64,000 bases of DNA from an uncultured bacterium (GCA_902770045.1 CACXRO010000017.1:9369-73368), one strand, 5' to 3'. Positions 3,951 to 56,359 are shown, counted from the stretch's first letter. A program made the numbers and translations. Notes: generated by a model not told the origin, from the sequence alone.

Positions 3951-5057
3951 TCATCGACGCAGGAGCCATTCACCGAAAAACGGGCTGACAAAGCGATATT
4001 CGCCGTCGTAGTTGTATATGATGTCTTCGCGTTCAAGTTTCTCGACGGCCTTTTTCACCGATGCCGCATTAAAGATCTGCGCCTCGGCGAGGAATGCGCT
4101 GGAGAATATCTCCTTGCCGCCGCGCTCGGCGATGGTGCGGAGAACGCGCGTCTGCAGTGCCGTAAGCTGCTTGATCGCGAAAGTGAAGTGATCGTGTTCC
4201 CTGGCGAATATGATTGCAAGTGCCTTTTTGATGTCGGATTCCTCGAGTGTCGTTCCGTTGTCGCTCATCTGCCAGAGCGCATCGCAGAGTTCTTGGACAA
4301 AGCCAGGAGTTTCGTGCGCAGTGTGGGCGATGGCGTCGAACACTAGGCGCGGGAGTATTCGTCCGCCGGTGGCAAAGCGCCGCTTTATGAATTCGAAGAA
4401 GTCGTCCGCATCGATGTTTCCGACCTTGAAGGAGGCGGCGGAATGGTAGAACGGGCTGGAATACTTGAAGAATATCTCAGCCATCTTGTTACGAACGCTG
4501 CCGAGGAAAATATACGGAGTGTTTGCGTCGAGTTGGATCCTGGAGCGCAGTACGGCGAGCGTCCTTTCCCCGTCGTCTATGTCGAGTATGTCCTGAAATT
4601 CGTCGAGCAGGACGCATATCTTACGCCGCTTTGTTTGCTCCAGGAGCACGTCAAGCACGGAGTCGAGCGTCGTTGGTTCGGCGGCAACCCGTGCGTCAAC
4701 TGTTACCGTCGGAGAGCCGGATGACGGGTCGATGGAAACAGTCGGCCTGAGGTGCGCAAGCATGCGTAAGGTCTTTGTCGCCCAGCTTTCGGAATCCTCA
4801 AGACGCGCGATGGCGGCGACAAGTCTGCGGCAGACGTCTGCCTGGTCACGCACGCAGAGGAAATCGGCGTGGAAGAGGGCGATGTTTTTCATGTGGCGCA
4901 CGGTTTCGATCACTAGGGAGGTTTTCCCAGTTCTGCGGTCGCCCTGCATGACGACATTCTGTCCGGATTCTATGCGCGAGGCAAGTTCGCGTTCAAGTAC
5001 AGGGCGTGGGCAGAAGAAGTCTCCATTGACTGTGCAGCCGTATCTGAATGGATTCAT
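3951..5057 (-). CDS. AAA+/P-loop ATP-binding protein (archaeal ATPase-like) with C-terminal winged helix
   Basis: Walker A GDRRTGKT, Walker B LLDEFQ, IFLGS motif. Confidence 0.85.
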   Translation of the reverse strand: MNPFRYGCTVNGDFFCPRPVLERELASRIESGQNVVMQGDRRTGKTSLVIETVRHMKNIALFHADFLCVRDQADVCRRLVAAIARLEDSESWATKTLRMLAHLRPTVSIDPSSGSPTVTVDARVAAEPTTLDSVLDVLLEQTKRRKICVLLDEFQDILDIDDGERTLAVLRSRIQLDANTPYIFLGSVRNKMAEIFFKYSSPFYHSAASFKVGNIDADDFFEFIKRRFATGGRILPRLVFDAIAHTAHETPGFVQELCDALWQMSDNGTTLEESDIKKALAIIFAREHDHFTFAIKQLTALQTRVLRTIAERGGKEIFSSAFLAEAQIFNAASVKKAVEKLEREDIIYNYDGEYRFVSPFFGEWLLRR

Positions 5058-5223
5058 AATGGTTTCCTTTTTTTATTCATGTTCGTTATGTCAATTGGTA
5101 TTATACCATTTGGTATTATGCTATTTGGCATAACGTCTGTAGTATAGCATATTTTGATGTACTAGCGCAACTGGGCCATTTTTGAACCGATTCTGATGAC
5201 GCTACCGCGGCAGTTTGCGCGGC

Positions 5224-5317
5224 GCGAAAATCCCTGCCCAACCGGGTGGGGATTTTTGGTATAATTCACTCATCCCGCGAGGCGGAAGACGCGACGCGGG
5301 GTGATAGTCCGGGAAAC
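5224..5317 (+). repeat. Cassette-head repeat R, copy 1 (short): hairpin + TGGTATAAT promoter + leader stem-loop
   Basis: Near-identical to the first ~94 bp of 5918.. and 7741... Confidence 0.9.
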
Positions 5318-5336
5318 CAAGTTGGAGTTGTAGTAA

Positions 5337-5891
5337 ATGGACCAAAGCATAGTTGTCTACGAAAATGGCGATAACCTTCGTCTTCAGGTAAAGACCGATG
5401 GCGAAACAGTATGGCTTACCCAGGAGCAGATGTGTCAACTGTTTGGGCGGAATCAGTCGGTCATTGCTCGGCACATAGCCAACATCTTTAAGGAGGGGGA
5501 GTTGGAGAAAGAAGTGGTATATGCAAAATTTGCATATACCACTCGTCATGGTGCGATTGCTGGCAAAACGCAGATAAAAGAGGTAGGTCTATACAACCTT
5601 GATGTCGTCATCTCCGTGGGCTACCGCGTGAAATCCATACAGGGAACGAGGTTCCGTCAATGGGCCACGCGGATGCTTCGCGAGATGCTGTTGAAGCGAG
5701 TGGACGAGGTTCGGGAGATCGCCAAGTTGCGGCGGCGCATGGATGCCGCGGAAGGCGACATCAAGCAGATCAAGGGCGGCATGAGCTATCTTGTGAAGCA
5801 GCTGTCGGCACCTGAAACCCCGCGCCGCAAGATTGGGTTCGGCGCCAAGCCCGGCGAGACATCGGCAACCCCATACGGCCGCGCCAAGTAG
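5337..5891 (+). CDS. Virulence RhuM-family DNA-binding protein (short form)
   Basis: ETVWLTQEQMCQLF, HIANIFKEGEL, YNLDVVISVGYRVKS, FRQWAT motifs; RRKIGF tail. Confidence 0.85.
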   Translation: MDQSIVVYENGDNLRLQVKTDGETVWLTQEQMCQLFGRNQSVIARHIANIFKEGELEKEVVYAKFAYTTRHGAIAGKTQIKEVGLYNLDVVISVGYRVKSIQGTRFRQWATRMLREMLLKRVDEVREIAKLRRRMDAAEGDIKQIKGGMSYLVKQLSAPETPRRKIGFGAKPGETSATPYGRAK

Positions 5892-5917
5892 CCTCAGAAT
5901 TCGCCAATTTGTACGCT

Positions 5918-6250
5918 GCGAAAATCCCTGCCCAACCGGGCGGGGATTTTTGGTATAATTCACTCATCCCGCGAGGCGGAAGACGCGACGCGGGGTGATA
6001 GTCCGGAAAACGGGCAAGTAGTCAGGCCTCCCCGCGCCATGCGCGGCCGCCGCGAACGCCCCGCCAGACGTTCATCAATGTAGCATCAACGCTACACGTC
6101 GTTCGCACGAAATACGACCAACATTTCAAATCAGAACGGCACCAAGCGCAAATACGCCTGCTTTGGGCGCACTTTGTCTCTGTGTATTCTGATTGAGCCT
6201 TTGGTCGGGCTTCGTGCGAGTGCATGGGATAAGGTGCGCTCTTATTTTAT
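5918..6250 (+). repeat. Cassette-head repeat R, copy 2 (long)
   Basis: Aligns with 7741..8070: first ~200 bp nearly identical, the rest with conserved blocks. Confidence 0.9.
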
Positions 6251-6989
6251 GTATCGAAGGTGGTTTTTCGGCGGCAAAATATTGCGCAAGCAACAAAGGA
6301 AAAATCAAATGAGAAAAGACCCAGATCGCGAATACATGTATTCGCACTACCACCTCGACTGGGGGGAGGACTGGATTCGCACGCCGCGATACGGTTTTCC
6401 CTTGATAAAGCCAACAACACTCGTACCTGAACGTATGGTACCATTCGACAAGATTCGAAAATGGCGGCTTGAAGGAGCATGCGTCGAGTTCCATCTCGCA
6501 GATAGGCGCATAGATTGTGCCTGGTTGCATCCAGAGCGCTACATTGATCATTTGCGGAAGGCAGCATGTGTTGCCACGCCAGACTTTTCGGTTTTGCCTC
6601 GCATGGAGCGGGCGGACGTCATTCACAACGTTTCACGTTCGCTTCGTCTTGGGCGTCATTTCCAGAGCTTCGGGATAGAAGTGCTAATTACGGCTATATG
6701 GGCGCTTCCCGACACATACGACATTTGCTTCGAGGCGTTACCGCGAAACGCAATCCTCCTTGTGTCCACTGTTGGGAGCATGAATGATGTTGCTTCGCGA
6801 GGGATCTTGCGCGACGGATTGAAGGCCTTGTGCGAGCGCAAATCACCCAAAGGACTTGTTATCTATGGGAAGATGCCGAACTTAGATTTCGACATTCCGG
6901 TTGTCAGGCACTTTGAGCGATGTAATCCTACCGTTGATGGCGGATATCAGCCGGAACTTCAATTCAATTCAAAGGAAGGATGGTGCTGA
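6249..6989 (+). CDS. DUF4417-family protein
   Basis: RYGFPLIKP, VEFHLADRRIDCAW, ATPDFSVLP, ITAIWA...TYDICFEALP motifs. Start codon uncertain (6174, 6249 or 6309). Confidence 0.75.
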   Translation: MYRRWFFGGKILRKQQRKNQMRKDPDREYMYSHYHLDWGEDWIRTPRYGFPLIKPTTLVPERMVPFDKIRKWRLEGACVEFHLADRRIDCAWLHPERYIDHLRKAACVATPDFSVLPRMERADVIHNVSRSLRLGRHFQSFGIEVLITAIWALPDTYDICFEALPRNAILLVSTVGSMNDVASRGILRDGLKALCERKSPKGLVIYGKMPNLDFDIPVVRHFERCNPTVDGGYQPELQFNSKEGWC

Positions 6990-6990
6990 C

Positions 6991-7395
6991 ATGGGCTCAC
7001 GAAGAGAATGGGAATCGTCAAGGCATTTTTCGCTATATTTCGAGAGTCACTACCACAATGTTGCAATGGTCGATGGCGTGAAGGTGCTTCAGTATAACGA
7101 CAGGCCGAACTCCGCGTTGCCAGAGTACGCCAAGACGTCCGAGGCGTATCTGTCAATCAACCGGGAAGGTGAGATTCTACATCTTCGGATATACAAAGAC
7201 CACTTTCCCGTTATGGAGATTGACATTGGCCATTGGCAACATTACGGTAAAAGCAGGGGGTATGTCCATGTCCACGATTATGCCAAAGGCAGTGACGGAT
7301 ATCCGCAACGGCTTTCGCCAGGTAGGGATATCACTCCCGCAGAAGAAGCGAAATATGGTAAAATACTCATGCACATGAAAGGAACGCTCAAATGA
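6991..7395 (+). CDS. Small toxin-like protein with HxH motif (polymorphic-toxin-like)
   Basis: MGSR start, EIDIGH...HVHD motif, RBS AAGGAAGGA, 4-bp overlap with the next gene. Confidence 0.45.
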   Translation: MGSRREWESSRHFSLYFESHYHNVAMVDGVKVLQYNDRPNSALPEYAKTSEAYLSINREGEILHLRIYKDHFPVMEIDIGHWQHYGKSRGYVHVHDYAKGSDGYPQRLSPGRDITPAEEAKYGKILMHMKGTLK

Positions 7396-7721
7396 GAACT
7401 GCATTGGAAAAATTGGAATCAGCCATACAGGCAGAGAATGAAGGGCGTGAACATATGCTTTTTATTCTGTTCAAGTATGGAGGCTTTGAATTTGAATACC
7501 AGGGCCGTTATTATGCATATGTGCGTCCGATCGGAGACTGCCGAGGATGCGTTGAGGACGAGTATGGGTGGAGCGGCTTCGACGAAATGCTCGATGCCAC
7601 CATCACGCAGACGGGCAAGACCGTTCGCGAGATGCTTGCTGAAATTCCAGAACATGCCCTAGAAATCACCTTTGATTCGCCGACCCTGCCGCCTAATGCG
7701 GTTGTTGTCGATGAGGTGTGA
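7392..7721 (+). CDS. Small acidic hypothetical protein (candidate immunity protein)
   Basis: ATGA-coupled to the upstream gene. FEFEYQGRYY and FDEMLDATI...GKTVREML motifs. Confidence 0.45.
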   Translation: MRTALEKLESAIQAENEGREHMLFILFKYGGFEFEYQGRYYAYVRPIGDCRGCVEDEYGWSGFDEMLDATITQTGKTVREMLAEIPEHALEITFDSPTLPPNAVVVDEV

Positions 7722-7740
7722 GGACACAGCGGATAATTCC

Positions 7741-8070
7741 GCGAAAATCCCCGCCCAACCGGGCGGGGATTTTTGGTATAATTCACGCATCCCGCGAGGC
7801 GGAAGACGCGGCGCGGGGTGATAGTCCGGAAAACGGGCAAGTAGTCAGGCCTCCCCGCGCCCCGCGCGGCCGCCGCGAACGCCCCGCCAGACGTCCATCA
7901 ATGTAGCATCAACGCTACACGTCGTTCAGCCAAAATACGACCAATATTTTATTCCAGAACGACCTGTATGTGGAGATGCGCCCAGCTGGGCGCATTTTCC
8001 CTTCATGTATTCTGGAAAGGCCTTTGGTCGGGCTTGGCTGAGTGCATGAGAGGAAATGCGCTCTTTTTAT
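7741..8070 (+). repeat. Cassette-head repeat R, copy 3 (long)
   Basis: Perfect hairpin AAAATCCCCGCCC-AACC-GGGCGGGGATTTT, then TGGTATAAT, then the shared leader. Confidence 0.9.
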
Positions 8071-8210
8071 GCACAAGAATCCCCTTGCGGCGATAAGCGC
8101 TATTGGCAATGGGGACAAAGTTCCACAGCAGGCAAGGAAACGTAGCAGTTATGGCCGTTGCGATAATCGCGACGTCCTTGCTTCCGTTGTCTCCATCTAT
8201 TGGAGGGCAA

Positions 8211-9377
8211 ATGGGTGGTGATAACGTGGATGTAAATGTGTCAAGACATCTAGGAGTTGTTGGACGAGTCAATCTTGGCAGCTTCTATACACCAGCAAAA
8301 TACGTTCGAATAGCTTCGGAGTGGTTGCTTGCGCATGGCATTGGAGATGGTTGGACGATAGCCGATCTTTCATGTGGATACGGAGCGTTCTTTGAGTTGT
8401 CTGAAGTGGAAGGACTGCATGGCTGCCGATATGTTGGCAATGACATAGATCATGATGCGGTTAAAAAGGCAAAAGCGGCGTTTCCGAATGTCAGGTTTTG
8501 CGAATGTAATGCGCTTGTCGATGTTTCGCGGGAGAAATTTGGGATTGGTGCTTGTGACAAGCTTGTAATTGTCGGCAATCCTCCATATAACGATGTCACT
8601 TCGCAGATTAACCAGACCATAAAGAACAATTCGATTCCAATTGATTCGGATTTGAGGACCAGAGATATTGGCATGTCATCCTTGCTGGCGTATGATAAAC
8701 TTAAAGCAGAGTATGTTTTAGTGCTTCACCCTTTATCGTACATGATTAAAAAAGCAAACTTCTCCGTAACTCAGAAGTTCTTCAGAAATTATGAACTTGT
8801 TGAGCATGTGGTTTTTTCAAGTCAGGAGTTTGCGGGGACTTCAAGGCTTGCCGGATTTCCGGTTATTGTTGCTATGTACAGGAGAAATGAAGGCAACGGA
8901 CTTAGTTATGCAGATGTTTTCAGAATTTGGTTCCATACCGTCGATGGCAAATCATTTTCTCTTTCCGGATTTGACTATGTCACAGATGAGATAGACAAAT
9001 ACCCTGGCAAACAAAGATACACACCTGAAATCTTGTTCTATACTATGCGCGACATCAACGCTTTGCGGCGCAGTCGGACATTCTTGCAGGAGCGAATAGC
9101 AAATGCGATTGATGTCAATCCGGAAAAACTTGCTTACTACTGTTATGTTGATTGTTTCAAGCGATATGCAGAAGTGCCATATTATCTTGGCAATTTCAAT
9201 GTCCCTTTTGTTCGGGCAGAGTTCGCGTCAATATCAAATGATGTGACGAGGGTCTCAATGCACGGACATCCTGAAATTTTCGGTAGCAAGCAGGAGCCAG
9301 ATGCTTGCACTGTGGCAAGGGTTAAACAGTACATCGCAAAGGCATTACAAGGAAAGGAAACAAACAATGCAAACTGA
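8211..9377 (+). CDS. N6-adenine DNA methyltransferase, M.PabI-like
   Basis: RVNLGSFYTP, motif I DLSCGYGAF, motif IV GNPPY. RBS GGAGGG before ATG 8211. Confidence 0.85.
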   Translation: MGGDNVDVNVSRHLGVVGRVNLGSFYTPAKYVRIASEWLLAHGIGDGWTIADLSCGYGAFFELSEVEGLHGCRYVGNDIDHDAVKKAKAAFPNVRFCECNALVDVSREKFGIGACDKLVIVGNPPYNDVTSQINQTIKNNSIPIDSDLRTRDIGMSSLLAYDKLKAEYVLVLHPLSYMIKKANFSVTQKFFRNYELVEHVVFSSQEFAGTSRLAGFPVIVAMYRRNEGNGLSYADVFRIWFHTVDGKSFSLSGFDYVTDEIDKYPGKQRYTPEILFYTMRDINALRRSRTFLQERIANAIDVNPEKLAYYCYVDCFKRYAEVPYYLGNFNVPFVRAEFASISNDVTRVSMHGHPEIFGSKQEPDACTVARVKQYIAKALQGKETNNAN

Positions 9378-10137
9378 TGAAGCAAAGGTAGTGAATGCGA
9401 AAGGCGGACTGTTCGTCAATCTTCCTCTCACGAAGCCGACGGGTAAGATTCGTGTCAAGAGACGGAGCTTCTTTTCGGAGTACGGAGAACCGATTGCACC
9501 GAGAAGGGTTAAACTGACGCAATCGTGCTATGTGGAATGGCAGATCGGGTACGACCTCCTCGTCAGCCATGAGAACGCAGAAAAGACCAGTTTAAAGGGC
9601 CTAACCTTCATCAACTACAAGGGGGAGAAAAAATATGCATATGAATTGAGCGAAATTGTCTTCTACGCACATCGTCATGGGCTTATCAAAGATGCAGATA
9701 TTGCGCGCTGCATTGCGGATATCCGCGCCGTACCGGACAAGAATACATTTGAAGAGACATCGTCCATAAGCCGAACTAATCCCAAAGAGGTGACAATTAA
9801 TGGCTTGGCGTTTTATGAAATGAACGTTTCATATCCGCTGTTTGTTCACAGGTTCGGGCGGTACGAGATTTTTGCGGAGATCATGATTCGAGAGAAGCAG
9901 CGCGCAGTTGGAACTCAGGCAATGCTGTATGTGTGCTTGCCTATAACGGCAATGAATTTCAGCAGACAGGCGATAGGACGGACAATGGATGCGAAGGAGT
10001 GTGCCGAGTGGCGGATAGGCCGAGAGGAGGCCGCTCTGGCCTTGGAGCTGTTTCGAGTGTTTGGAATGCTTTCCCCAAAACACAGGCATGATGTCATGTC
10101 TATACTTGAAATGCTGTTTCCTGAGACCACGCGGTAG
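9367..10137 (+). CDS. R.PabI-family restriction DNA glycosylase (HALFPIPE fold)
   Basis: LPLTKPTGKIRVKRR..F.EYG.P and YVEWQIGYD match the R.PabI family as recalled. Coupled to the MTase. Confidence 0.8.
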   Translation: MQTDEAKVVNAKGGLFVNLPLTKPTGKIRVKRRSFFSEYGEPIAPRRVKLTQSCYVEWQIGYDLLVSHENAEKTSLKGLTFINYKGEKKYAYELSEIVFYAHRHGLIKDADIARCIADIRAVPDKNTFEETSSISRTNPKEVTINGLAFYEMNVSYPLFVHRFGRYEIFAEIMIREKQRAVGTQAMLYVCLPITAMNFSRQAIGRTMDAKECAEWRIGREEAALALELFRVFGMLSPKHRHDVMSILEMLFPETTR

Positions 10138-10185
10138 TAACTGTGGAGATGCTCTCATTTCAACAAATGAGGAATGATTGACGTC

Positions 10186-10335
10186 CTAGTCCACGCATGA
10201 AATGGCATCTTGAATTTCACCAATAAGAGAACGAAACTCATCTGAGTAACGGATGTCGGGGTCAATGGAAATACTCTTGGTCTTATAAAGTTCAAGTAGC
10301 TTTTCTGCGAGTGTAAGAAAAAGGTAGTCGTTCAT
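10186..10335 (-). CDS. 49-aa small ORF or truncated gene (MNDYLFLTLAEKLLELYKTK...)
   Basis: Own TATAAT at about 10360-10365 and an AAGGAAAA RBS on the minus strand. Below the ORF-track length cutoff. Confidence 0.35.
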   Translation of the reverse strand: MNDYLFLTLAEKLLELYKTKSISIDPDIRYSDEFRSLIGEIQDAISCVD

Positions 10336-10593
10336 TGTTGGTTTTCCTTGGTGTGCGAATATTATAACATAAAGATCGTTGGCTGTGCATAGGTCGCGCC
10401 GGGCTATAGATCCATTTCACGGTGAATGGAAAATCGCGGCGATGACCGCGGCAGATTGCGCGGCGGTTTTGGTATAATACGCATCGTTGTCTGGAGCAAG
10501 TGCAATGAACGGAACAACCATTTCAGGGGTGGCAGATGCCGGCTCGATGCGGACGCGAATCCTCGCGATCCGCGCGGTTTGCGCTCTCTGCGG

Positions 10594-11547
10594 ATGACGA
10601 CGGCGGCGATGGCAGGCGGATGGACAGCGGTTGGCGTGGTGATCCTTGTCTGGGGAATGACGTTCGCGTCGACGCGGGCGCTGCTCGCTGACTTCTCCGC
10701 GCTTGAAATCCTCCTGCTCAGGTTTTCGCTCGCATACGCCGCGCTCAGGATTGCGTTCGGGCGGTTCTGCGGACACAGGGAGCCCGAACGCCGCGGCGAC
10801 GGATGGCTGTTCGCGGCGATGGGACTCACTGGGATTGTCGCCTACCAGTTCCTCGAAAACTGCGCCATCTACTACACGAACGCGAGCAATGTCGCCATCC
10901 TCGTCTCCTTCGGTCCGGTCGTCACCGCGGTGATGGCGCGGATGCTGTCCGACGACCGCTCGCTTTCGCCGCGGCTCGTCGCCGGCTCGCTGGTCGCCGT
11001 CGCCGGCGTGGCGCTTGTGAGCCTCAACGACGTGGCGGTGTTCGAGCTGAGGCCGCTCGGGGACCTGATGGCGCTTGCCGCGATGGCATGCTGGGGGCTG
11101 TACTCGGTGCTGCTCGACGCGGCGAACCGGCGCGGAGTTCCGCCGGTCGTCGCCGTTCGCCGCGCCTTCGGGTGGTCGCTGGCGATGATGGCGCCGTTCG
11201 CTCTGTGGGGAATGACGGAGTCCGGTACCTGCGCGCTCGACGGCTCGTTCGCGATCATCCTCGACGCCCAGACCAACCTGGACCGGTTCCTCGACCCCGT
11301 CAACTGGATGAACTTAGTCTTTCTCGGCGTTCTCGCCTCCGCGGCGAGCTTCGTCCTCTGGAGCGCGGTGTGTGGTAGGCTTGGGGTGGTCAAGACCACG
11401 ATATCGCTTTATCTCACTCCGCTGGTCGGAGTTGCGTTCGCGACGGTGTTTCTCGGCGAGCAGGTGACGTGGCTCGAGGCAGCCGGAGGGTGCGTCATCC
11501 TTGTCGGCGTGGCGTTCGCGACGAAGGCGAAGGGAGGCGGGAAGTGA
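10594..11547 (+). CDS. DMT/EamA-family transporter
   Basis: About 10 hydrophobic helices; two EamA repeats (ILVWGMTF; YLTPLVGVAFATVFLGE). Confidence 0.9.
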   Translation: MTTAAMAGGWTAVGVVILVWGMTFASTRALLADFSALEILLLRFSLAYAALRIAFGRFCGHREPERRGDGWLFAAMGLTGIVAYQFLENCAIYYTNASNVAILVSFGPVVTAVMARMLSDDRSLSPRLVAGSLVAVAGVALVSLNDVAVFELRPLGDLMALAAMACWGLYSVLLDAANRRGVPPVVAVRRAFGWSLAMMAPFALWGMTESGTCALDGSFAIILDAQTNLDRFLDPVNWMNLVFLGVLASAASFVLWSAVCGRLGVVKTTISLYLTPLVGVAFATVFLGEQVTWLEAAGGCVILVGVAFATKAKGGGK

Positions 11548-11822: not shown

Positions 11823-12014
11823 TATCACTGTGTAGCAAAACCGCGCCTCCGCGGCACTTTTCGCAGCGGATTGGATTTCGTCCGCACCGTAATCTCCGCG
11901 GCAGTTTGCGCGGCGAATTTTTGTGTAGTTTTGAGGGGGTTGAATCGCAGAAAACCCTTTATTTTCAAGGGCGGAAATGGTATAATACACATATCAAAAC
12001 GAAAGGATAATGAC

Positions 12015-43282: not shown

Positions 43283-46183
43283 TCAAAGGTATTTGGCGGT
43301 GAAGGACTCTTTGCAGGCGCGGACCTGGTCGATCGGGCCTTCGCAGACGACGCGGCCGCCGGCGTCGCCGCCGCCGGGGCCGAGGTCGACGATCCAGTCG
43401 GCGCACTTCATGACGTCGGTGTTGTGCTCGATCACGATCACCGTGTTGCCCTGGTCCCGGAGGCGCAGGAGAAGCTTCATCAGCTTGGCGACGTCGTCGA
43501 AGTGGAGCCCGGTGGTGGGCTCGTCGAGGAGGTAGAGCGTGCGTCCGGTCGAGCGCCGCGAAAGCTCCGTCGCGAGCTTGATGCGCTGGGCCTCGCCGCC
43601 GGAGAGGGTGGTGGCGCTCTGCCCGAGCTGGATGTAGCCGAGGCCGACGTCGTCGAGGGTGGCGAGCTTCCGCGCAAGCGAGGGAATCTTCGCAAAAAAG
43701 TCCTTCGCCTCGGCGACGGTCATCGCCAGGACGTCGGCGATGTTCTTGCCGGCGTAGGCGACTTCCAGCGTCTCGGCGTTGAAGCGACGGCCTCCGCACT
43801 GCTCGCAGGTGACGTAGACGTCGGGCAGGAAGCTCATCTCCAGCTTGCGCACGCCGTCGCCGCCGCAGACCTCGCAGCGCCCGCCCTTGACGTTGAAGGA
43901 GAAGCGCCCCGCGGTGTAGCCGCGCGCGCGCGCCGCCTCGGTCTTGGCGAAGAGCTCGCGGATCTCGGAGAAGAACCCGACATAGGTGGCGGGATTGGAG
44001 CGCGGGGTGCGGCCGATCGGCGACTGGTCGATCTCGACGACCTTGTCGAAGTGCTCCGCGCCGGTAAGCTTCGCGAACTTCCCCGGAACCTCCCGCGAGC
44101 GGTAGAAGCGGCGCATGAGCGCGCGCTTGAGCGTCTCGTCGACGAGCGTCGACTTGCCGGAGCCGGAGACGCCGGTTACCACCGTGAACGCGCCGACGGG
44201 GAAGTGCGCGGTGATGTTCTTGAGATTGTGCTCGCGACAGCCGGAGATGGTGAGGTGGTTTAGTGGTTTGGCAGTTTGGTGGGATAACACACGGATTTGT
44301 TCGCGACTAACGTCGCTCACATTTTCAGAATCGCGAGGTTGAATCTTCTTCCTGCCTGTCAAATAGTCGGCAGTGAGCGACTTCGCCTTGAGAAGTCCCT
44401 TGAACGGGCCCTGGTACATCACCTTGCCGCCTTCGCGGCCGGCGCCGGGACCGAGGTCGACAATCCAGTCCGCCGCGCGCATCATCTCTTCGTCGTGCTC
44501 GACGACGACGACGGTGTTGCCGCGGTCGCGGAGCCCCTTGAGGGCGGAGATGAGCCGATCGTTGTCCCGCGGGTGGAGCCCGATCGTCGGCTCATCGAGG
44601 ACGTAGAGGACCCCGGTCAGACCCGAGCCGATCTGCGTTGCCAGGCGGATGCGCTGCATTTCGCCGCCGGAAAGCGACGAGGCCGCGCGGTCGAGGGTGA
44701 GGTAGTCGAGCCCGACGTCAAGCAGGAACTGGAGGCGACGGCAGATCTCCGCCACGATTTCGCCCAGCCCCGAAAGGTTTGTTGCTTGGGGTGCGGTTTT
44801 TTTAGCCGCATAGGACGCAAAGGTCGCAAAGGGTGCGTTCTCTGCGTTCTTTGCGTTCTTTGCGGCTAAACACAACCCATTGAAGAAGGCTAGGGCTTCG
44901 CCGACCGGCATCGCCATTACCTCGACGATGGTCCTGCCGGCGACGGTGGCGGCACGGGAGAACTCGTTGAGGCGGGCGCCGTGGCAGGTCGGGCAGGTGC
45001 GGTAGCTCTGGTACGTCTCCCACTTCGCGCGCGTCTCCTCGTCCTCCGCCTCCTCGAGCCGCTTCTGCAGCGTGGCGAGGACGCCCTCGAAGGGACGGTC
45101 GACGGAGCGCCAGGGCAGAATCAGGTCGTCCTTGAACCCGTGCATCAGGTCGTGGCGGAACTTGGCGGGCAGCTTTTCGTAGGGAGTGGAGAGCTTCACC
45201 TTGTACTGGCGCGCAATCTGCTCCAGGAGCGCGTTGTAGTACATGATCGCGTTGTGTCCGGCGCGGCGCCAGGGGTGGATGCACTCGCGCAGCGGGAGCG
45301 TGCGGTCTGGCACCACCAGCTCCTCGTCGAAGTAGTAGAGGTGGCCGAGGCCGGAGCAGGTCGGGCACGCGCCGTAGGGCGAGTTGAAGGAGAACGACCG
45401 CGGCTTCAATTCGTCGAAGGAAAGTCCGCACTCGACGCAGGCGTTGAGCTCGGAGAACACGGTCGGACGGTCGGGCTTGTCCGCCAGCTCCACCGACATC
45501 ACGCCCTTGCCGGTCTTGAGGGCCAGCTCTACCGAGTCGGTGAGGCGGGTGCGGTCGCAGGGAAGGACAATCCGGTCGACGACGACGTCGATCGTGTGGG
45601 CCTTCTTCTTGTCGAGCGCCGGGACCTCGTCGATCGGATACACCGTGCCGTCGACGCGCACGCGGGCGAACCCGTTGCGCGCGAGCGCGGCAATCGTCTC
45701 CTCGTGGCGTCCCTTCTTGCCCTTGACGACCGGCGCGTAGAGGATTATCCGGCCCGGCTCTCCGGCGGCGAGGGTGTCCACTATCTGTTCGGCGGACTGG
45801 CGGGTCACCGGCCGGCCGCACTTCGGGCAGTGGGGCGTCGCGGCGGATCCGTAGAGGATGCGCAGGTAGTCGTGGATCTCGGTGACGGTGGCGACGATCG
45901 AGCGCGGGTTGCCGCTGGTGGTGCGCTGCTCGATCGAGATCGCGGGCGAGAGGCCCTCGATGCGCTCGACGTCCGGCTTCTGCATCCGGTCGAGGAACTG
46001 CCGCGCGTAGGCCGAGAGCGACTCCACGTAGCGGCGCTGGCCTTCGGCGTAGAGGGTGTCGAAGGCGAGGGACGACTTGCCCGAGCCGGAGAGCCCGGTG
46101 ACCACGGTGAGCGAGTCGCGGGGGATGACGACGTCCACGCCCTTGAGGTTGTGGACCTTCGCGTTCCTGATGGTGATGTCCAT
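43283..46183 (-). CDS. uvrA: Excinuclease ABC subunit A
   Basis: Two ABC cassettes (GLSGSGKSS; GVSGSGKST), LSGGEMQRI and [10 protein letters not shown], zinc fingers. Two repeat-derived in-frame inserts. Confidence 0.98.
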
Positions 46184-54543: not shown

Positions 54544-54597
54544 GTGCGCATTATACCATAATTTCCGGTCCAGTGGTTGAAGCCCGGTGCCTATTAA

Positions 54598-54870
54598 AGT
54601 TGAAAGGTTGAAAAGTTGAAAGGTTGAAAGGCCGCGGCAGATTGCGCGGCGGTTTTGGTTTAACACGCGGATTTGTTCGCGTCTAACGACGCTCACCTTT
54701 CGCGGCGGCGGAAATCTGCCGCGAAAGCCAACACGGCCCGCGGCAAAAATGGTATAATTCACGCGATGAACAACCGTGACAAGTCCGCGCTTGCGCTCGC
54801 CCTCGCCATCGTGGGCGGAATTGCGGCTGGCTTGCGCTACACCCCGCGCCCCGCGGCATATACAGTAAAA
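54598..54870 (+). repeat. Direct repeat S copy 1: TTGAAAGG tandems + 12-mer + palindrome + promoter + signal-peptide stub
   Basis: Aligns with 56071..56359. Contains the stub ORF 54766..54882 (MNNRDKSALALALAIVGGIAAG...). Confidence 0.9.
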
Positions 54871-56008: not shown

Positions 56009-56070
56009 TGACAAAAGGGTTGGACCCTTCTGTATAACGCCGGTTGAAAGGTTGGGCGGAGCCGGTTGAG

Positions 56071-56359
56071 AAGTTGAAAAGTTGAAAGGTTGAAAGGCCG
56101 CGGCAGTTTTGATTAACACGCGGATTTGTTCGCGTCTAACGACGCTCACCTTTCGCGGCGGCGGGAATCTGCCGCGAAGGTTAACACGGAGCGCGGCAAA
56201 AATGGTATAATTCACGCGATGAAACCCCATGCCAAGACCGCGCTTTCCCTCGCCCTCGCCATCGTGGGCGGAATTGCGGCTGGCATGCGCTGTGACGCGT
56301 CCGTGACGGTGGAAACCCCGACGCAGATCAACCCGCGCCCTGCGGCATATACAGTAAAA
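56071..56359 (+). repeat. Direct repeat S copy 2
   Basis: Same order of elements as 54598..54870; stub MKPHAKTALSLALAIVGGIAAG. Confidence 0.9.

Follow-up and report, generated by a model that had tools for sequence, protein, structure and literature searches.

The window analysed in this study is a stretch of 64,000 nucleotides (nt) from an uncultured bacterium (assembly GCA_902770045.1, CACXRO010000017.1:9369-73368). It contains a low-GC island (4000-10500; 41-58% GC compared with 65-71% in the flanks), which is bordered by an EamA transporter gene on one side and, judged by eye, probably by a glutamate-racemase-like gene on the other. Three copies of a non-coding leader lie in this island, and this leader is the subject of the present report (Table 1). 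In copy 1, a short form, the element GUCCGGGAAACC directly precedes the Shine-Dalgarno sequence of a RhuM-family gene (Pfam RhuM; ATG at 5337), which matches the PADLOC candidate family PDC-S05. Copy 2 is followed by a DUF4417 gene (Pfam PF14386, E 4.8e-33) and two small open reading frames (ORFs) without a Pfam family, a cargo for which no PADLOC match was found. These three genes are a candidate uncharacterised defence system, since the same leader elsewhere fronts restriction-modification (R-M) and BREX operons. Copy 3 precedes a methyltransferase-like gene and a gene for an R.PabI-family restriction endonuclease (Pfam RE_R_Pab1, E 8e-35). The methyltransferase domains are weak (E about 1e-3, below the cut-off), and the same methyltransferase and PabI pair is carried by one of the relatives (L054).

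Table 1. Features of the leader copies, their cargo genes and related loci (window coordinates, or C-numbered positions elsewhere in the same genome).
Feature	Position	Strand	Remark
Copy 1, short form	5227-5336	+	Same hairpin, promoter and P1 as long copies, then GUCCGGGAAACC; without 3' core
Copy 2, whole	5921-6254		
Copy 2, upstream terminator-like hairpin	5921-5951	+	AAAATCCCTGCCC-AACC-GGGCGGGGATTTTT; overlaps -35 position; read from sequence
Copy 2, putative extended -10 promoter	5951-5959	+	TGGTATAAT; invariant in all copies of this genome
Copy 2, predicted transcription start	about 5962-5966		
Copy 2, P1 hairpin of 5' domain	5965-5997	+	CAUCCCGCG...CGCGGGGUG; compensatory changes in relatives
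Copy 2, AUAG junction and P2	5998-6069	+	GUCCGG...CCAGAC around variable insert
Copy 2, region R0	6075-6104	+	CAAU, H1 and linker; alternative partner of rod 5' strand
Copy 2, H1	6080-6095	+	GUAGC-AUCAAC-GCUAC
Copy 2, linker	6096-6104	+	ACGUCGUUC
Copy 2, rod	6103-6219	+	Four stacked helices; RNAalifold and pair counts
Copy 2, P2'	6103-6109/6213-6219		
Copy 2, P3'	6115-6121/6201-6207		
Copy 2, P4	6132-6151/6172-6192		W with X
Copy 2, P5 hairpin	6152-6171		
Copy 2, intrinsic-terminator-like hairpin and U-tract	6218-6248	+	Terminator scan; scanned hairpin 6218-6241
Copy 2, Y	6220-6233		Terminator 5' arm and loop
Copy 2, T3	6234-6241		Terminator 3' arm
Copy 2, U-tract	6242-6248		
Copy 2, post-terminator module, then Shine-Dalgarno region	6249-6308	+	
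Copy 2 cargo	6309-7721	+	DUF4417 6309-6989; small ORFs 6991-7395 and 7392-7721
Copy 3, whole	7744-8074		
Copy 3, upstream hairpin	7744-7774	+	
Copy 3, putative extended -10 promoter	7774-7782	+	TGGTATAAT
Copy 3, 5' domain	7788-7892	+	P1 7788-7820, AUAG, P2 7824-7892
Copy 3, 3' core	7898-8070	+	H1 7903-7918, linker 7919-7927, rod 7926-8041
Copy 3, P5	7975-7995		Within rod
Copy 3, X	7995-8015		Within rod
Copy 3, terminator-like hairpin	8040-8063		Terminator scan
Copy 3, U-tract	8064-8070		
Copy 3 cargo	8211-10137	+	Methyltransferase-like 8211-9377; R.PabI-family endonuclease 9367-10137
Further full copy	C60:347-698		
Further full copy	C3:50783-51086		
Further full copy	C7:2626-2954		
Further full copy	C1:27364-27544		
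Divergent copy	C56:15664-15830	-	35-43 bits (range of the three divergent copies)
Divergent copy	C4:31261-31439	+	35-43 bits
Divergent copy	C28:6951-7122	+	35-43 bits
Second NGN-domain (NusG-like) gene	C77:6153-6380	-	Locus L192; ~170 residues; downstream of DEAD-box helicase gene

Each long copy (copies 2 and 3) is built in the same order: a terminator-like hairpin, an extended -10 promoter, about 290 nt of non-coding sequence, and a G+C-rich hairpin with a T-run. The two copies are 85% identical over ~335 nt, being nearly identical in the 5' ~145 nt and ~70% identical in the distal part, and their folding is more stable than that of shuffled sequences (z -5.0 for copy 2 and z -4.6 for copy 3). 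This agrees with an initial annotation of the window, which had proposed a conserved multi-hairpin non-coding leader shared by copies 2 and 3. Both copies indeed finish at TTTTATG, directly after a hairpin that is listed by the terminator scan. Alignment and ORF listing gave no ORF common to the two copies, again as annotated, and the ATG at about 6041 of copy 2 is CCG in copy 3. A scan of the window for transfer RNA (tRNA) and transfer-messenger RNA genes found none.

The upstream hairpin (AAAATCCCYGCCC-AACC-GGGCGGGGATTTTT) runs into a perfect extended -10 box, TGGTATAAT. It is kept in all copies, with G-U or compensatory variants, and its only Rfam resemblance is a weak one to the terminator part of the rnk leader. 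The TGGTATAAT box matches the promoter consensus and sits 6-7 nt before P1 in all copies, while relatives have TATAAT-like boxes at the same distance.

The initial annotation had confined the element to copies 2 and 3, and it is in fact a phylum-wide family. The genome of origin (2.27 Mb in 87 contigs, 64.7% GC) contains six strong copies, two of them in the window, and three divergent ones. The divergent copy on C4 has a much longer 5' domain. Of 36 genomes sampled from the genus, 29 contain the element according to BLAST, at up to nine places in one genome. Its most widely conserved part is the 3' core of ~172 nt (window 6075-6250), from which we built the covariance model R1 with 174 positions and 46 pairs; the core of copy 3 scores 184.5 bits with this model. 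Across a phylum sample of 401 genomes from 184 genera, R1 gave full-length matches in 77 genomes and 42 genera, often in several copies; at most six candidates were scored per genome. Members occur in gut and rumen Kiritimatiellia and their relatives, and a weaker one was found in a metagenome-assembled genome of Victivallaceae. A leader scoring 178 bits was also seen on a 1.8-kb contig labelled Ruminiclostridium sp. (L111, JAGBLA010000032.1), next to a methyltransferase 86% identical to the Kiritimatiellia one; wrong binning of a Kiritimatiellia contig or a recent transfer is the probable cause.

The novelty claimed against Rfam was borne out. A scan with Rfam 15 matched no family in the whole window and none covering the element in 20 diverse homologous loci, and a search of 5880-6320 at a permissive threshold returned chance-level hits only (E >= 0.1). 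Searching phage and plasmid collections with the core by blastn gave no match, and hence no evidence that the leader rides on known phages or plasmids. In the literature we found no description of an R-M riboswitch, attenuator or structured RNA, or of a Kiritimatiellae non-coding RNA, of this kind. The leader is a new RNA family, for which the regulatory principle discussed below is known and the biological setting is new.

The structure of the core was derived with RNAalifold from an alignment of 44 close homologues, and a further 29 distant homologues from across the phylum were considered. The resulting fold A consists of H1, the invariant linker ACGUCGUUC, a rod of four helices (P2'-P3'-P4-P5) with the internal loops GAAAUAC/GGGCUUC and AUUUC/GGCCU, and the terminal hairpin with its U-tract, which is kept in all 73 of these homologues. 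It is also the minimum-free-energy fold of copies 2 and 3. Standard pairs occupy 96.3% of alignment cells in fold A, compared with 32-51% in controls slid by 1-3 columns, and cells with double changes number 267, compared with 14-47; none of 500 shuffles attained the observed values. H1 is paired in 98% of cells and helices 2-6 in 92-99%, and 22-23 of the 46 pairs of the whole fold show changes on both sides. The pair of columns 32-162, for example, occurs as all four Watson-Crick types (UA 15, AU 10, CG 10, GC 9). These compensatory changes in close and distant homologues confirm the proposed selection on RNA structure.

Five of the seven hairpins of the initial annotation correspond to conserved helices. 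These are the P1 hairpin CATCCCGCG/CGCGGGGTG, the CCGG-AAAA-CGGG hairpin that forms the start of P2, H1 (GTAGC/GCTAC), the central CGCC/GGCG of P5, and the terminal GTGCAT/TGCGC hairpin. The local GTCGT..ACGAC hairpin is not conserved and has to be replaced by the long-range P3', in which ACGACCAA pairs with TTGGTCG and covaries (CTACCAC/GTGGTAG, CTGCAAC/GTTGCAG and others). The AGCCT..GGGCT hairpin has no place in the rod, yet it reappears as a covarying hairpin (helix 9) in the second fold described below. The purely local picture does not hold for the core, which is a long-range rod able to refold completely.

Alternation between G-U and A-U is frequent (columns 79-125, for example, have UA:20 and UG:20). 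Read from the opposite strand, G-U wobbles would become C-A mismatches, and the functional molecule is therefore the RNA of the plus strand, an assignment with which promoter, terminator and downstream genes are all in line. This bears on the idea of a cassette boundary or recombination site acting at the DNA level, such as an integron-like attC/attI site or a single-stranded DNA hairpin substrate. Three successive cassettes each begin with the repeat, the cargo is foreign DNA, and a 29-nt segment, CAATGTAGCATCAACGCTACACGTCGTTC, is almost invariant in the genus, all of which would fit a DNA element. Besides the one-sided wobbles, however, the repeat always points the same way with respect to promoter, terminator and genes, the island genes that we examined (window 3951-11547) yielded no integrase or recombinase, and the invariance is accounted for by dual RNA pairing. 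We consider a DNA-level role very unlikely, and the recombination substrate suggested in the initial annotation finds no support. Even less credence can be given to a remnant of a decayed protein-coding gene. A mechanical listing does yield minus-strand ORFs of 67 amino acids in both copies, but at different positions, and the indels between copies 2 and 3 are 1-2 nt long while the substitutions are pairwise compensatory and do not follow the third codon position. Covariation is significant and no sign of decayed coding sequence was seen.

The core has a second conserved fold. On the 3' side of P4, a pyrimidine run and the adjoining CAUGUA make up segment X, whose sequence is complementary to that of Y, the 5' arm and loop of the terminator. 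In the 29 phylum-wide members the mean energy of the X:Y duplex is -14.2 kcal/mol, compared with -9.7 +/- 0.53 kcal/mol when partners are permuted (0 of 5000 permutations). This signal equals that of accepted helices in strength, and it is absent from three control segment pairs. The same permutation test gave -22.8 vs -15.9 +/- 0.67 kcal/mol for a duplex of R0 with W and -14.1 vs -12.1 +/- 0.36 kcal/mol for the 3' strand of P5 with T3 (0 of 5000 in both cases), and five unrelated segment pairs gave no signal. Forcing X:Y and refolding the remainder produces a complete second architecture, fold B. Here R0 (H1 loop, H1 3' strand and linker) pairs with W and the start of P5, the P5 3' strand and X pair with Y, the loop and T3, and the former internal-loop sequences become two hairpins, GAAAU/AUUUC and GGCCU/GGGCU.

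Counted by column on the alignment fitted to fold A, fold B is paired in 80.1% of cells (36-56% in slid controls) and shows 179 double-change cells (49-63 in controls), with both-side changes at 42 pairs and no shuffle out of 500 reaching these values. X:Y (helix 8) is paired in 88.8% of cells and has both-side changes at nine of its 11 pairs; X:Y, P5-3':T3, the GGCCU/GGGCU hairpin and linker:W have 5-9 such pairs each. The R0:W complementarity corresponds to helices 2 and 5 in this count. Compensatory differences within X:Y are already visible between copies 2 and 3. Both folds are thus established by covariation, and in copies 2 and 3 they differ by only ~4 kcal/mol (fold A against fold B, -70.6 vs -66.7 kcal/mol for copy 3 and -67.2 vs -63.1 kcal/mol for copy 2).

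The two folds also make sense of the pattern of conservation. R0, W, X and Y are nearly invariant while P2', P3' and distal P4 are hypervariable, because each of the former has two partners and each of the latter has one. Loops and linkers had been described in the initial annotation as diverging between stems that still pair. The divergence is real, yet the loops and linkers are in part each other's partners in fold B.

On this basis we consider it fairly probable that the element is an operon 5' leader that works as a bistable terminator/antiterminator switch and controls defence cassettes. The extended -10 promoter would produce an RNA of ~290 nt made up of the 5' domain and the 172-nt core, and the core would act as the switch. 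In fold A the W:X rod and H1 would leave the Y:T3 terminator free to form, and transcription would stop before the genes. In fold B R0 would take W, and the freed X would pair with Y, that is, with the 5' arm and loop of the terminator. Readthrough would occur via a kinetic intermediate in which X:Y has formed and P5 is closed, so that T3 is without a partner as the polymerase crosses the U-tract. Prefix folding of copy 3 by minimum free energy indicates that the linker:W helix arises once W has been made and that the rod wins only after synthesis of the P3' 3' strand, ~35 nt before the terminator 3' arm. This modelling suggests that the decision between folds is kinetic: where the rod exchange is completed the terminator would form, and where W is held by R0 X would capture Y. 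We infer which fold is ON and what shifts the balance; the trigger could be a ligand or protein that acts on the 5' domain, or else the kinetics of folding.

Several observations weigh against this switch. We infer the promoter, the terminator and the readthrough alike. In fold B T3 is still paired (with GGGCGCAU) just before the U-tract, so a complete fold B could terminate too, and readthrough requires the intermediate in which P5 is still closed. In the model, antitermination leans on this proposed state. At equilibrium, once P3' has been made, no structure is more stable than the rod with the terminator at any transcript length, and on thermodynamic grounds alone the default state would be OFF. 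Nearly all conserved nucleotides that are unpaired in the fold A core are explained by fold B, which leaves no obvious ligand pocket in the core. Some family members front genes unrelated to defence, and for at least one large R-M-like gene of the same genome (C1:94095-97136) the nearest 4.5 kb contain no leader.

Upstream of the core, most members from the genus carry P1, an invariant NAUAG and P2, with covariation in this region judged by eye, as it was for the post-terminator module. P1 has compensatory variants in relatives (AUCUUGCG/CGCGAGAU, UUCUGCC/GGCAGAG) as well as loop insertions, and P2 occurs as GUCCGG/CCGGGC, GUUCGG/CCGAAC, GGUCGG/CCGACC and GUCUGG/CCAGAC around an insert of 10 to ~100 nt. 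More distant members have other 5' subtypes and a single-hairpin form; NAUAG is common to the 5' domain subtypes. Beyond the U-tract, copy 2 has AUGUAU, a variable hairpin with a GG(U) loop (6255-6275), GCGGC and UGCGCA (6283-6290). The pattern in the genus is CAUGCAU, a variable hairpin with a GG(U) loop, GCGAC, N4-8 and UGCGCAG before the ribosome-binding site, with stems that appear to covary.

Several further observations concern the 5' domain. It is ~97% identical among five copies of the genome (window 5965-6075 and 7788-7898, C60, C3 and C7), despite ~30% differences, introduced by compensatory changes, among the 3' rods. Gene conversion or a shared trans-acting factor are possible reasons for this uniformity. 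In L054, L052 and L055, tandem-repeat blocks (GAGTTCGAGTTGGAGTTCGAG; GGGTGAGTTGAGAGTGGATGAGTGGG and its complement) are inserted in the P1 or P2 loops with the flanking helices undisturbed. A relay in which P2 and a GACGU:ACGUC helix compete for the linker is present in the copies of this genome; it was rejected as a family feature, having only 4 bp in other members of the genus.

The invariant NAUAG junction between P1 and P2 could form a pocket. In a tentative extension of the switch, which we regard as possible while leaning against it, the leader would be a sensor RNA that either represents a riboswitch class of its own or is targeted by a single dedicated factor. Sensing would fall to the 5' domain (P1-AUAG-P2) and the role of expression platform to the bistable 3' core, and unrelated anti-phage systems and surface genes would be placed under one common signal, for example phage infection or stress, forming an RNA-controlled defence regulon in Kiritimatiellia and related Verrucomicrobiota. 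If true, this regulon would span R-M systems of types I, II, IIG, III and ISP, BREX, and surface-modifying genes.

The genes behind the leader provide further evidence. Where first genes could be assigned they lie on the same strand and start ~30-200 nt past the U-tract, with no gene between them and the leader. Comparing the longest ORFs on the same and opposite strands gave ties in high-GC DNA, and Pfam tallies were used instead. In the genome of origin the strong copies precede four methyltransferase and nuclease operons, one BREX operon and one DUF4417 operon. The C60 copy fronts a C5-methylase with a MutH/Sau3AI-like nuclease, the C3 and C7 copies front EcoRI-type methylases with GmrSD-N/HNH proteins, and the C1 copy fronts the BREX operon (BrxC, 1159 bits), while the three divergent copies precede small lipoprotein or zinc-ribbon genes.

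In 39 loci from relatives, the first gene encodes an R-M component in at least 24 cases, and the types involved are unrelated to one another. Methylases among these first genes comprise 13 of EcoRI type, four of Dam type, three N6_Mtase, two Eco57I, one C5 and one N6_N4; ResIII, type ISP, SacI and Mrr nucleases also occur, and second genes include GmrSD/HNH (eight), DpnII, HaeIII, PabI, AlwI and HsdR/S. Of the 27 first genes in the phylum sample, about half are R-M-like, and the remainder are transferase and surface-protein genes (glycosyltransferase/GtrA, acyltransferase-3, BspA-LRR, LamG and Flg_new). The family is enriched before defence and cell-surface-variation cassettes and is not exclusive to R-M. 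Of the roles named in the initial annotation, a cis-regulatory RNA fits the nearby same-strand genes, the terminator and the conserved competing helix; an antitoxin RNA is not supported, given that no single kind of toxin is encoded downstream.

The same data bear on the possibility of a stand-alone small RNA gene, whose terminated product of ~290 nt would act in trans or bind a protein while toggling between folds, the operons being mere neighbours expressed by leak-through or from their own promoters. The unit does run from promoter to terminator and is multi-copy, copy 3 has a TGCGATAAT box at ~8158-8167 between U-tract and ATG, and both folds keep T3 paired before the U-tract, so that most transcripts may stop there. 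Yet the assignable downstream genes begin tens to ~150 nt behind the U-tract on the same strand, the conserved post-terminator module extends toward the ribosome-binding site, and copy number tracks cassette number; sequestering the terminator 5' arm in X:Y is moreover what an expression platform needs and a plain small RNA does not. We therefore hold a stand-alone RNA to be unlikely.

We see similarly little likelihood that the leader is a constitutive insulator or dampener, sensing nothing, in which the upstream hairpin blocks incoming transcription, a strong promoter and a leaky terminator fix nuclease expression at a low level, and the structure stabilises the mRNA. The order of terminator, promoter and leader, the low expression at which R-M systems work, and a core without an evident ligand pocket are all compatible with such a device. 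It has no need, however, for a second complete fold kept by compensatory changes across the phylum, nor for a conserved 5' domain with an invariant junction.

The proposed bistable switch shares the relay logic (W:X, X:Y, R0:W) of multi-region attenuators and riboswitch platforms, such as trp-type 1:2/2:3/3:4 attenuators, PyrR, T-box and the pbuE adenine riboswitch. As in an attenuator, a consensus promoter lies upstream and a same-strand gene downstream, a G+C-rich hairpin is followed by a U-tract, and X:Y sequesters its 5' arm. Unlike those systems, the leader lacks a leader peptide and any T-box or specifier features, it matches no Rfam family, it exchanges the strands of a 115-nt rod in full, and its terminator 3' arm has a second partner; the genes behind it belong to R-M, BREX and surface-variation operons and not to biosynthetic pathways. 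The Rfam scans returned no T-box family at thresholds as loose as E <= 10, nor do aminoacyl-tRNA or amino-acid genes follow the leader. A leader-peptide mechanism was considered and rejected: an AUG-UAA inside W is not kept in distant members, and there is no shared ORF.

Known control of R-M systems involves C proteins, methyltransferase autorepression, and antisense RNAs or reverse promoters (Mruk and Kobayashi 2014, PMC3874152). Leader attenuation is not described in that review, where 'riboswitch' is absent and 'attenuat' and 'leader' occur once each, the latter for symE. The need to limit or time methylase and nuclease expression would be the same. In contrast to these systems, we find no C gene and no antisense promoter, and one leader serves unrelated R-M types; the copy 3 operon, for instance, holds only the methyltransferase and the overlapping PabI-type nuclease. 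The regulons of the c-di-GMP-I riboswitch (RF01051) likewise have many copies before diverse accessory genes, covarying helices and conserved segments between helices, whereas the present leader matches no Rfam sequence or structure.

Long, terminator-bearing leaders present in multiple copies before acquired or surface-polysaccharide loci are also known from Bacteroides UpxY 5' untranslated regions, LoaP leaders, put and EAR. These act by factor loading or polymerase modification, and to our knowledge their descriptions include no conserved bistable fold. By analogy, the leader could load a specialised NusG paralogue or similar factor, with which the polymerase would pass the terminator and the low-GC foreign genes behind it. 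The genome does encode a second NGN-domain protein besides NusG (on C77, 49 bits), which is possibly a specialised antitermination factor and keeps factor-dependent antitermination among the options. The cargo is low in GC relative to the flanks, as given above, and multi-copy leaders front accessory, surface and defence loci as they do in Bacteroides capsule loci. This paralogue is, however, unlinked to any leader copy, put, EAR and LoaP elements are much smaller and need no two-fold strand exchange, and Rfam gave no match to EAR or related families. Processive antitermination thus seems quite improbable.

A parallel in position is found in rumen and gut Bacteroidales, where EcoRI-type methyltransferase leaders stand before orthologous methyltransferase and DUF262/HNH operons and likewise have a rod, a GGGCYUU-type loop and a U-tract. 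Their sequence is unlike that of the Kiritimatiellia leader, and they have a motif of their own, GCATTAGCTATTATTTCGCGTTC, in 38 of 80 loci. Two Bacteroidales loci (L180 and L168) gave weak, correctly placed R1 matches of 17.6-19.9 bits, far below true members; the match at the Victivallaceae locus is likewise weak and correctly placed. In the 38 of 80 loci (among L112-L186), the conserved leader was seen ~220-310 nt upstream of EcoRI-type methyltransferase genes; it starts at GCRTTN1-2GCTRTTATT(TCGCGTTC), beyond which lie a long rod and a U-tract.

Other repeats were noticed in the window. At 62885-62999 and 63576-63690 a 12-nt sequence (CGCGGCAGTTTG) is repeated in tandem immediately before TATAAT-type promoters, and single CGCGGCAGTTTG-type units occur at ~5196-5215, 10446-10465 and 11884-11915. 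A single or double unit precedes several promoters, including that of leader copy 1, and the repeats might serve as an array of transcription-factor sites or as an upstream promoter element. Another promoter and leader module, with GTTGAAAGG repeats followed by CCGCGGCAGATTGCGCGGCGGTTTTGGTTTAACACGCGGATTTGTTCGCGTCTAACGACGCTCACCTTT, is present in two to three copies (54591-54838, 56065-56291, also 44280-44324) and may represent a second leader family.

As a large (~290 nt), covariation-rich RNA with two conserved folds, the leader is well suited to structure probing, to the search for ligands or factors, and to riboregulator engineering, and model R1 can serve as a sequence marker with which to find defence and accessory cassettes of uncultured Verrucomicrobiota from gut and rumen. 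A switchable leader common to unrelated R-M types, BREX and surface genes would add a different layer of control to those known for these systems. If this is true, bacteria could tune much of their anti-phage arsenal jointly via RNA folding.

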